64,000 nucleotides of DNA. Origin: Escherichia coli. GTDB lineage: Bacteria; Pseudomonadota; Gammaproteobacteria; Enterobacterales; Enterobacteriaceae. The notes under the pieces were generated by a model, which saw nothing but the letters and a program-made list of their open reading frames with translations, had not been told where the DNA came from and ran no database searches. Of the stretch, positions 37,849 through 39,913 are shown piece by piece (within the stretch, counting starts at the first letter, position 1; each line of letters starts with the position of its first letter). The stretch lies in NCBI RefSeq assembly GCF_003334785.1, contig NZ_QOWV01000007.1; one strand, written 5' to 3'. The position numbers and the translations under genes were made by a program.

Positions 37849-38307
37849 TTATAGAGACAAGTCCTGCAGTCGCTCCGATAAGTCTCCGGTAGCCAACTGC
37901 TCTGCGTCGATATCTTCCTTGACCTGTTGATGCCAGGTTGTTTCATCCCACAGCTCAAACTTGTTGAACTGTCCAACCAGCATCACTTCTTTTGTCAGCC
38001 CGGCATGTTGCCGCAGTACTGGCGCGATTAACAATCGACCTGCGCCATCCATCTGACATTCGCTGGCATGACCTAACAGTAGGCGCTGCACACGGCGCTC
38101 AACCGGGTTCATGCTCGACAGACGCGATAATTTTTGCTCGATAATTTCCCATTCAGGCAGGGGGTAAAGCAGCAGGCACGGGTGATAAATGTCAATGGTG
38201 CAAACCATTTGACCGGCAGCGTTCTCAAGCAGCTGTTCCCGATAACGGGTAGGCACTGATAAGCGCCCTTTGCTGTCGAGATTGACTAACGTTGCTCCCC
38301 GGAACAT
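37849..38307 (-). CDS. mraZ: transcriptional regulator MraZ
   Basis: Track ORF 164 aa; known N-terminus [19 protein letters not shown] begins at ATG 38305-38307 (152 aa); the longer frame would run through the operator repeats. Confidence 0.93.
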
Positions 38308-38321
38308 GCCAGCCTCACCCC

Positions 38322-38352
38322 TTATTCCCACTTTGCCCCACAATTTCCCACT
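38322..38352 (-). promoter_or_regulatory. MraZ operator: three direct GTGGG repeats at 10-bp spacing
   Basis: Minus strand reads aGTGGGaaatt-GTGGGgcaaa-GTGGGaataag, 15-45 bp upstream of the mraZ ATG. Confidence 0.75.
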
Positions 38353-38354
38353 GA

Positions 38355-38390
38355 AAGGAGTTTACGGAGCTGAGGAAAAGCTTGTCAAGC
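38355..38390 (-). promoter_or_regulatory. candidate Pmra promoter (-35 TTGACA, ~18-bp spacer, -10 TAAACT)
   Basis: Perfect TTGACA on the minus strand (plus coords 38383-38388) and TAAACT (38359-38364), immediately upstream of the MraZ repeats. Confidence 0.5.
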
Positions 38391-38861
38391 CAGTCACAAG
38401 GCATACCGAGGTAAAAAACCCGATGTTTACGGCTAATATCAGCGTTGTTTATTTTACGTCCAACGTGCGAAGCAAATTAACGTTATGAATAGCTGTAAGA
38501 AAAAATCCCTCATCGTCATCACCGTTTTAAAATGACTCACTATTTTCCACAGCAAATATAAAGTGTCAGTTTGCGACGCGAGCGGCATTTTAGGACATAT
38601 CTTCCCCGGTTAACAGTCCTTGTTACGTCTGTGTGGCGCTTGATGCCAGCGGGTTTGCGCAAAAGCAAAGAAAAGTGTTTGTTAAATCGGCAATTCATCG
38701 CCGCATGTAACAAAATAATGCAAAAACGCGCTGTCGATATCACTTAATTATTGTGAATTTCAGCTGGTGAGTTAATTAACGGGCGGGTTTAAAAGCATTT
38801 ATCAATAATAGTCAGGAATAGTCTTATTTACTTTAAGCATATTGATGTCCAGTCCCGTACT

Positions 38862-38898
38862 CTACGCGCCAGAGGGAAATTCACCTGGCGCGTATTTT
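38862..38898. terminator. hairpin just downstream of cra, flanked by A-tract on the minus strand and T-tract on the plus strand
   Basis: CGCGCCAG-(12 nt)-CTGGCGCG followed by TATTTTTGTT on the plus strand, 10 bp after the cra stop. Confidence 0.5.
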
Positions 38899-38908
38899 TG
38901 TTCGCGGC

Positions 38909-39913
38909 TTAGCTACGGCTGAGCACGCCGCGGCGATAGAGATTACGTTTAATGCGCGTTAAACCAGGTTTTGGCTTACGCGGTTCGTCCAGGCTTGCCA
39001 GGACAATCTCCAGCACACGCTCTGCGACATCGCGGTGACGTTGAGCCACTGCCAGCACCGGACACTGTAAGAAGTCGAGCAGTTCGTTATCGCCAAAGGT
39101 GGCAATTGCCAGGTCAGAAGGCAGTTTGCCGTCGCGACGCAGCGTGACATCCATCACTCCTTGCAACAACGCAAACGACGTTGTGAACAGCGCCTGCGGC
39201 ATCGGATGCGTTTCCAGCCATTTTTCGAATAACTGGGCAGCCGCCTCCCGCTCATAGCTGTTGGCATACAGGAAATGCACTTCGCGCGGATCATCTTTCC
39301 AGGCAGTACGGAAACCTTGTTCACGCAGGAAGCTGACAGAAAGCTCCGGTAGCGCACCAAGATAAAGCACCGTCTCGGCGGGAAACTTACGTAACTCTTC
39401 CGCCAGCATTTCGGCATCATCCTGATCGGCACCAACCACGCTGGTGAAGTGTTCACGATCGAGGGCGCGGTCCAGCGCGACAATCGGGAACGGGTCGTTA
39501 GCCCAGCGTTGATAAAAAGGATGCTCAGGAGGCAACGACGTCGAAACAATAATGGCATCAACCTGACGCTGTAAAAGGTGCTCAATGCACCGCATTTCGT
39601 TGTCTGGCTGATCTTCTGAGCAGGCAATCAGCAGTTGATAACCCCGTTGCCGCGCCTGGCGTTCAAGATAGTTAGCGATGCGGGTATAGCTGGTGTTCTC
39701 CAGATCGGGGATCACAAGACCAATAGAACGTGTGCGTCCAGCACGAAGCCCAGCTGCCACGGCGTTCGGGTGGTAATTGTGCTCACGCACCACAGCCATG
39801 ACTTTTTCAACGGTTTTGTCGCTCACACGGTATTGCTTCGCTTTGCCGTTAATAACATAGCTTGCAGTGGTCCGCGACACTCCCGCCAGCCGAGCGATTT
39901 CATCCAGTTTCAC
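38909..39913 (-). CDS. cra: catabolite repressor/activator (FruR), LacI family
   Basis: 334 aa [38 protein letters not shown]...; N-terminal HTH plus periplasmic-binding-protein-like fold. Confidence 0.96.

Follow-up and report, generated by a model that had tools for sequence, protein, structure and literature searches.

What function, if any, is served by the DNA between cra and mraZ in Escherichia coli? This spacer is the entry point of the essential dcw cell division operon. Pmra, the promoter located in the mraZ-proximal part of the spacer, drives the genes for septum and cell wall construction, and the routes by which Pmra receives input from growth rate, nutrition, and envelope stress are poorly understood; the control on record comprises only autorepression by MraZ and weak evidence for PdhR and CRP. 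We analyzed a 64,000-nucleotide stretch of E. coli DNA (contig NZ_QOWV01000007.1 of assembly GCF_003334785.1; hereafter, the window), in which an earlier note, made from the sequence alone, had singled out approximately 500 bp of AT-rich DNA upstream of Pmra as having no assignable function. This interval contains short blocks that are conserved across the Enterobacteriaceae at fixed distances from each other and from Pmra, as well as three weak transcription starts directed toward mraZ, and it carries no coding or RNA-structure signal. With moderate confidence, we interpret the interval as a conserved cis-regulatory module of the dcw operon with auxiliary promoters, which most probably acts at the DNA level. 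The seemingly empty spacer is a familiar kind of feature and represents no new kind of biology; its interest, which we rate as moderate, comes from its position in front of the operon and from the sharp coordinates that can be given for its parts (i.e., five constrained elements, a candidate RcsB input, three auxiliary starts, and predicted spacings of 87–88 and 113 bp).

Location and Annotation of the Spacer

The window is E. coli K-12-like and reverse-complemented, such that ftsI, ftsL, rsmH, mraZ, and cra are all encoded on its minus strand; MG1655 coordinates are obtained by subtracting the window coordinate from 127941. The spacer between cra (38909–39913, minus strand) and mraZ (37849–38307, minus strand) is 601 bp long and AT-rich, with a GC content of 0.32–0.49, as compared to 0.51–0.63 in the flanking genes. 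The PGAP annotation places no feature between cra and mraZ in 5,424 of 5,426 complete E. coli genomes, and an Rfam search of the interval at E ≤ 10 returned one chance 15-bit match and nothing else. Because the interval is unannotated in these 5,424 genomes and without a match in Rfam, its description as unassigned stands, and the landmarks that had been named around it are all present. Its sequence blocks and the region upstream of Pmra were also undescribed in the literature that we searched, and the ROSE supplement contained nothing relevant to the interval. The interval contains both transcription starts and conserved blocks beyond Pmra, two of the three kinds of feature (the third being ribosome footprints) whose absence the earlier note had named as grounds for dismissing a function.

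Conserved Blocks at Fixed Distances

A scan for MraZ yielded 80 Enterobacteriaceae loci, from which 79 spacers (79 species including E. coli) were aligned with MAFFT; the species counts given below refer to this alignment, and identity values are mean identities to E. coli over the 79 species. In the 78 other species, cra is located upstream of mraZ as well, with a spacer of 553–733 bp. The alignment shows near-invariant islands amid near-random sequence. Block A (TAAAATGCCGnnCGCGTCGCAAACTGACACTTTATATT; 38555–38592) has an identity of 0.95, which is the value also found for the Pmra core (38359–38388), followed by block D (TTG(C/T)ATTATTTTGTTACA; 38706–38723) with 0.90, block B (TTTTTTCTTACAnnTATTCATnACGTTAATTTGC; 38472–38505) with 0.89, the octamer CTGTTAAC (38609–38616) with about 0.84, block E (TGCCGA(A/T)TTAACAAACAC; 38673–38692) with 0.74, and block C (38813–38826) with 0.73, all read on the minus strand. 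The spacers between blocks reach identities of 0.29–0.57, and the final 60 nt of cra (38912–38971) reach 0.71. Block B, which is centered at approximately −132 relative to the Pmra start, was found in all 79 species, and block D includes a 9-nt run that is at least 95% invariant. Block E contains an inverted copy of the block D core, TTTGTTA(A/C), at a distance of approximately 32 bp, which, as read from the alignment, places the two inverted cores about three helical turns apart. A (T/C)GTTAA core is found again in CTGTTAAC and in block B; that a single factor might have several sites across blocks D and E, CTGTTAAC, and block B is speculation based on these sequence likenesses.

The spacing between blocks is nearly constant from block D to Pmra, over approximately 370 bp, although the intervening sequence has diverged. 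D and E are 32 bp apart in 40 of 55 species, the distance from E to A is 107–108 bp in 41 of 51 species, and the distance from A to B is 87–88 bp in 62 of 65 species, while B is separated from Pmra by 113–115 bp in 78 of the 79 species. The octamer CTGTTAAC, which is present with at most one mismatch in 72 of 79 species, precedes the TAAAAT hexamer of block A by exactly 24 bp in 57 of 59 species. Farther upstream, indels are frequent: the distance from C to D is variable (mostly 95–108 bp), and the stretch between the cra stop codon and block C varies by well over 100 bp and is the source of most of the 180-bp spread in spacer length. Among more distant lineages, a Tenebrionibacter locus and a locus with a MraZ matching “Erwinia sp. 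HR93” retain blocks A and B as well as the 87- and 113-bp spacings.

Within E. coli, the segment from A to B is at least 99% identical in 5,247 of 5,424 genomes and single-copy in each, and only 1,362 of these 5,424 genomes have a whole spacer that is at least 99% identical. No paralogues of the blocks were found in the window or in any E. coli genome; block A is single-copy in the 64-kb window. One locus on a contig labelled Chryseobacterium sp. 18061 (L021) has a typical Enterobacteriaceae cra–mraZ arrangement and is nearly identical to the locus of “Citrobacter sp. 18056” (L019), which suggests that it likely represents a mislabelled or contaminated assembly.

Sites for IHF, Fis, ArcA, LexA, Cra, PdhR, Lrp, DnaA, FNR, NsrR, σ54, σ28, and σE were considered, and none coincided with a conserved block; partial likenesses to PurR, GntR, NrdR, and FadR sites, the marbox, boxA, and the gearbox were noted by eye and dropped. 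Three other sequences in the interval resemble known sites, of which the first and the third are the sole hits of note for the factors just named. One is a perfect match to a relaxed DnaA box (TTTTCCACA; 38543–38551, plus strand) between blocks A and B, which is present in E. coli, nearly matched in one other genus, and not conserved elsewhere. Another is a second RcsB-box-like sequence (TAGGACATATCTTC; 38591–38604) with one mismatch, which lies over the −10 hexamer of block A in E. coli and of which other genera conserve only the TCCTA half. The third is a moderately conserved, Fis-consensus-like palindrome (GGACGTAAAATAAAC; 38447–38461) with an AT-rich center between short inverted repeats, located in a spacer between blocks and centered at approximately −103 from the Pmra start.

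Transcription Starts Upstream of Pmra

Transcription starts were taken from the Cappable-seq GTF file of Ettwiller et al. 2016, which represents one growth condition and whose MG1655 plus-strand entries correspond to the mraZ sense. Besides Pmra (start at 89590, window 38351; score 27.2; TAAACT upstream), three mraZ-sense starts were found upstream at 89143 (window 38798; score 6.2), 89237 (window 38704; score 2.1), and 89360 (window 38581; score 9.4), each located 6–8 nt past a −10-like hexamer. The extra upstream promoters that had been thought plausible for this interval are supported. Two of these starts, 89237 and 89360, lie within or directly past blocks that are conserved between genera. 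The 89237 start is located 2 nt beyond block D, which provides the −10-like TATTTT/CATTAT upstream of it. The weak promoter at 89143, P(89143) (38798–38810, minus strand), has a −10 hexamer TATTAT (38805–38810) directly past block C and a start at 38798 (A); this hexamer is kept only within Escherichia, and block C falls in the spacer of the promoter.

The 89360 start, with approximately a third of the strength of Pmra, belongs to a promoter, P(89360), for which block A contains the −10 hexamer, a GC-rich discriminator (GCCGCTC), the start, and the first ~27 transcribed nt. The invariant −10 hexamer, TAAAAT (38587–38592), agrees with the consensus at five of six positions, including the A at position 2 and the T at position 6, and is part of a run matched in at least 95% of species; the 5′-triphosphate end, mapped in one dataset only, lies 6 nt past it. 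The octamer CTGTTAAC occupies the −35 position, where CTGTTA (18-bp spacer) and TGTTAA (17-bp spacer) are −35 candidates with two to three of six consensus positions; the consensus scan returned no match here. Stringently controlled promoters such as rrn P1 have a GC-rich discriminator and a 16-bp spacer. P(89360) likewise combines TAAAAT and GCCGCTC with a non-consensus −35 element; unlike rrn P1, however, it is much weaker, has a spacer of 17–18 bp rather than 16 bp, and lacks an UP element.

A Candidate RcsB Site in Block C

The RcsAB box has the consensus TaAGaatatTCctA. Block C (TAAGACTATTCCTG; 38813–38826, minus strand) is a pseudo-palindrome resembling the RcsB and RcsAB boxes, and it is the sole sequence in the 64-kb window that matches the consensus TAAGAATATTCCTA with at most two mismatches. 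It agrees with 12 of 14 positions of the RcsAB box and with 13 of 14 positions (one mismatch) of the structure-derived RcsB box, TN(G/A)GAN4TC(T/C)NA (PMC7913699). At the aligned position, 78 of 79 species retain both half-sites of RGA-N4-TCY around an N4 that is free to vary, a pattern that, judged from sequence, resembles the site of a dimeric helix-turn-helix protein. RcsB, or a relative in the same (NarL/FixJ-type) family, is the leading candidate for the protein that would bind block C, at somewhat less than even odds. As compared to the known RcsB box system, block C is located 475 bp upstream of Pmra and within the core of a weak promoter; because of this location, its position would suggest repression or a roadblock rather than classical activation.

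A Proposed Module and Points Against It

The module that we propose would consist of D, E, CTGTTAAC, A, and B as short constrained elements at set distances from each other and from Pmra, with block C as an RcsB-type pseudo-palindrome farther upstream and with three weak σ70-type promoters, at blocks C, D, and A, that would fire toward mraZ. P(89360) would be the chief auxiliary promoter, given its invariant −10 hexamer, CTGTTAAC at −35, its GC-rich discriminator, and the invariant sequence at the start of its transcript. Because no terminator or mapped 3′ end was found before mraZ, RNA from the upstream promoters most likely crosses Pmra and the MraZ operator and enters mraZ, as does the documented read-through from cra; such read-through would add a condition-dependent input with a leader of at least 274 nt. 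The blocks themselves most likely serve as operators or activator sites bound by proteins, and their placement relative to Pmra probably matters. An RcsB-type dimer at block C would tie envelope stress to the dcw cluster at its 5′ end; at the cluster's 3′ end, RcsB input at ftsA1p is documented (summarized in PMC3265435). The internal promoters of the dcw cluster (ftsQ p1/p2 and those of ftsA/ftsZ, with SdiA, RcsB, and σS inputs) provide a parallel, since there too several weak co-oriented promoters feed a long operon; unlike these, however, the proposed module is intergenic, located upstream of the first promoter, undescribed in the literature searched, and marked by fixed long-range spacing. 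A more ambitious version, which we regard as unlikely, is that A, B, D–E, and Pmra form one fixed-geometry assembly of nucleoprotein or RNA polymerase (with spacings of 32, 107, 88, and 113 bp), working through one or more factors or by an unstructured P(89360) leader RNA, that would set dcw output. Such an assembly would represent a missing master input to cell division gene expression in enteric bacteria, upstream of the MraZ autoregulatory loop.

Several observations weigh against a regulatory module with auxiliary promoters. The upstream starts come from a single dataset and a single growth condition; an older set of transcription start sites determined by sequencing (TSS-seq; Kim 2012) contains only Pmra, in both E. 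coli and Klebsiella pneumoniae, and the SMRT-Cappable-seq operon table includes no mraZ unit beginning at 89143, 89237, or 89360. Because the upstream starts are missing from these two sources, they have to be regarded as weak, and it is only by inference that we extend their transcripts into mraZ. In addition, the upstream −35 elements are poor and were missed by a simple consensus scan, P(89360) has, unusually, a U as its mapped start, and three starts per ~560 nt is only approximately three times the genome-wide density of the Cappable-seq dataset. As for the blocks, none of the known motifs compared, by scan or by eye, fits A, B, D, or E, and the full RcsB 14-mer is present in none of the 79 species, with the terminal A absent in all 79; moreover, relative to the 89143 start, block C occupies −15 to −28, off the usual activating position. 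Finally, one locus (L084, 1478–2000; Enterobacteriaceae bacterium ESL0689) has kept cra, Pmra, and the MraZ repeats and has lost blocks A to E, so that at least this lineage can do without the module. The same locus amounts to a naturally occurring deletion test of the module.

Alternative Explanations

The conserved sequence could instead act as RNA, with P(89360) giving rise to a noncoding RNA or a long leader whose 5′ end (CGCGUCGCAAACUGACACUUUAUAUUU) and block B serve as single-stranded seed or protein sites, acting either in trans or, in cis, on the translation or stability of mraZ; we consider this rather unlikely. The model for such an element is UpsM, the dcw leader of Rhodobacter sphaeroides, where a strong Rho-independent terminator yields an abundant Hfq-dependent small RNA and the leader promoter replaces a proximal mraZ promoter (PMC5089854); a long dcw leader has been stated to be exclusive to the Rhodobacteraceae (PMC5089854). 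Both elements are co-oriented with the operon, and their starts are located at similar distances from mraZ (274 nt upstream of the ATG here, as compared to 268 nt for UpsM). RNA seeds typically show sequence constraint of the kind seen in the ~27 invariant nt that open the transcript, and block B is U-rich. SMRT-Cappable-seq favors long transcripts, and the lack of a mraZ unit from 89360 in its data would fit a short product. Unlike UpsM, however, no terminator or 3′ end was found here, and the proximal Pmra is dominant. The terminator scan predicted none in the interval, the alignment shows no conserved hairpin before T-runs, and Term-seq data (Adams et al.) contain no 3′ end in the spacer or at its T-runs, the first condition being empty from 83641 to 89783. 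RNAalifold on five segments gave energies of approximately 0, per-species folding z-scores of −0.2 to −0.8 provided no signal for D–E, A to B, B to Pmra, or the segment past B, and a hairpin between D and E is not consistently favored; an all-versus-all scan of column pairs on both strands revealed no covarying helices and only low-diversity U/C-versus-G pairings between blocks. Block B was also tried as an anti-Shine-Dalgarno sequence for mraZ and rejected, as the duplex is no better than those of shuffled sequences (p about 0.2). With neither an Rfam match nor a terminator, covarying helix, or Term-seq 3′ end, the discrete small RNA that the earlier note had thought plausible does not find support. 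Furthermore, CTGTTAAC, D, and E lie upstream of the 89360 start, so an RNA from that start cannot explain their conservation.

A small hydrophobic protein is far less probable still. Its candidates are a 19-aa peptide (MRDFFLQLFITLICFARWT; 38454–38513, minus strand) across block B and a 44-aa open reading frame (ORF) beginning at an ATG in block A. The block B frame is open in all 79 species, with a hydrophobic core FFLQ(I/L)F(I/M)TLI, and in E. coli a GGUGA can be read 5 nt before the ATG; the block A ATG is kept in 79 of 79 species. Against this, 24 of the 79 species, including another Escherichia, have no in-frame ATG, GTG, or TTG upstream of block B, 1-nt indels occur within and just past the block, and synonymous positions show no more variation than the others, while the 44-aa ORF is intact in two of 79 species, is broken even in E. 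albertii, and has its ATG upstream of the P(89360) start. No ORF is conserved across the 79 species, and ORFs of 67, 58, 44, 29, 26, 25, and 19 aa, all tried as genes, are broken outside E. coli. The largest of these, a 67-aa ORF with a GTG start and no Shine-Dalgarno sequence (38540–38743, minus strand), had already been judged spurious from its sequence, and this judgment proved correct, because it is intact in only one of 79 species (its start is kept in six of 79). The blocks might also serve a role apart from dcw, as a landmark for chromosome organization or a nucleoid protein, or as promoters and operators of an antisense transcript that ends at a plus-strand terminator next to cra, an explanation that we regard as improbable. 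Strict spacing over ~370 bp with unconstrained spacers does suggest a large protein–DNA assembly, the hairpin next to cra is a canonical intrinsic terminator for plus-strand transcripts only, and block A contains TATAAA on the plus strand; however, this TATAAA lacks the key final T, the promoter scan found no plus-strand promoter-like site, and all mapped starts head toward mraZ, in a listing that comprises the MG1655 plus strand only. The blocks are, moreover, single-copy per genome, unlike known chromosome-organizing motifs, and their spacing is fixed relative to Pmra specifically. That the spacer is non-functional and its starts pervasive and meaningless is hardly credible: the starts are of low strength and confined to a single dataset, and the blocks are missing from one lineage, but block conservation equal to that of Pmra over 79 species, beside near-random spacers, contradicts this explanation, as do the fixed spacing and the reduced polymorphism within E. 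coli.

The Pmra Neighborhood

Downstream of the proposed cis-regulatory module, Pmra (38351–38398, minus strand) consists of a −35 element TTGACA (38383–38388), an 18-bp spacer, a −10 element TAAACT (38359–38364), and a start at 38351, and it agrees with 10 of 12 consensus positions in the promoter scan. Its start was mapped to 89588–89590 in three datasets and has also been confirmed in K. pneumoniae. Directly downstream of the start are three TGGGN repeats 10 bp apart (38326–38350, minus strand), which we take to be the MraZ binding site of Eraso et al. 2014. Pmra also includes a CRP-like site (TGTCAAGCCAGTCACA; 38383–38398, minus strand) that overlaps the Pmra −35 element and is, with one mismatch, the best in the 64-kb window; its center at approximately −40 from the Pmra start corresponds to a class-II position, and its TGTGA half is kept only in Escherichia and Citrobacter. 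This site agrees with the presence of mraZ among the targets of CRP in genomic SELEX. A PdhR gel-shift probe that showed weak binding spans 38366–38409. UP elements, which had also been proposed for this region, were not supported, as the DNA from −40 to −60 of Pmra is poorly conserved and not A/T-rich (window 38391–38411, CCTCGGTATGCCTTGTGACTGG; identity ~0.5).

Over the 79 species, the 18 bp that separate the −35 element of Pmra from its −10 element (AGCTTTTCCTCAGCTCCG; 38365–38382) are 90–95% conserved, an unusual degree for a promoter spacer. In a transcript initiated upstream, AGCTTTTCCTCAGCTCCG would provide the leader segment with the greatest complementarity to the ribosome-binding region of mraZ (duplex ~−30 kcal/mol; z ~−2.3). 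Two classes can be distinguished by how far Pmra lies from the mraZ ATG, 83–85 nt and 91–94 nt (38308–38325 in the window; loci L001–L081), and some genera have ~10 nt (one helical turn) inserted after the last TGGGN repeat and before the Shine-Dalgarno sequence.

Over its first 60 nt (38248–38307), mraZ has a DNA identity of 88% across genera, with some 10-nt bins at 96–99%. Because the final 60 nt of cra reach 71%, this conservation suggests that the mraZ translation-start region is under extra constraint. The same region contains AACGTTA, the palindromic core that is also found in block B.

The cra Terminator Hairpin and Read-Through

At the other end of the spacer, a hairpin (CGCGCCAG...CUGGCGCG; 38866–38893, minus strand) can be read from the sequence; its predicted folding energy is ~−23 kcal/mol for both strands. 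The earlier note had placed the cra terminator here, which is correct in part: the hairpin is present and SMRT-Cappable-seq maps a cra 3′ end to MG1655 89082 (window 38859), 7 nt beyond it, but the U-run (UAUUUUUGUU) is on the plus strand of the window, antisense to cra, and the cra strand continues with UAGAGUA after the hairpin. In the corresponding stretch (window 38855–38905), Escherichia species carry a U-run solely antisense to cra, whereas most other genera have a symmetric, bidirectional terminator composed of A-run, hairpin, and T-run. The SMRT-Cappable-seq data also include a read-through unit covering cra, mraZ, rsmH, and ftsL. Given this documented unit and the U-run on the opposite strand only, the cra terminator of Escherichia looks leaky, with low-level transcription from the cra promoter extending over the whole spacer.

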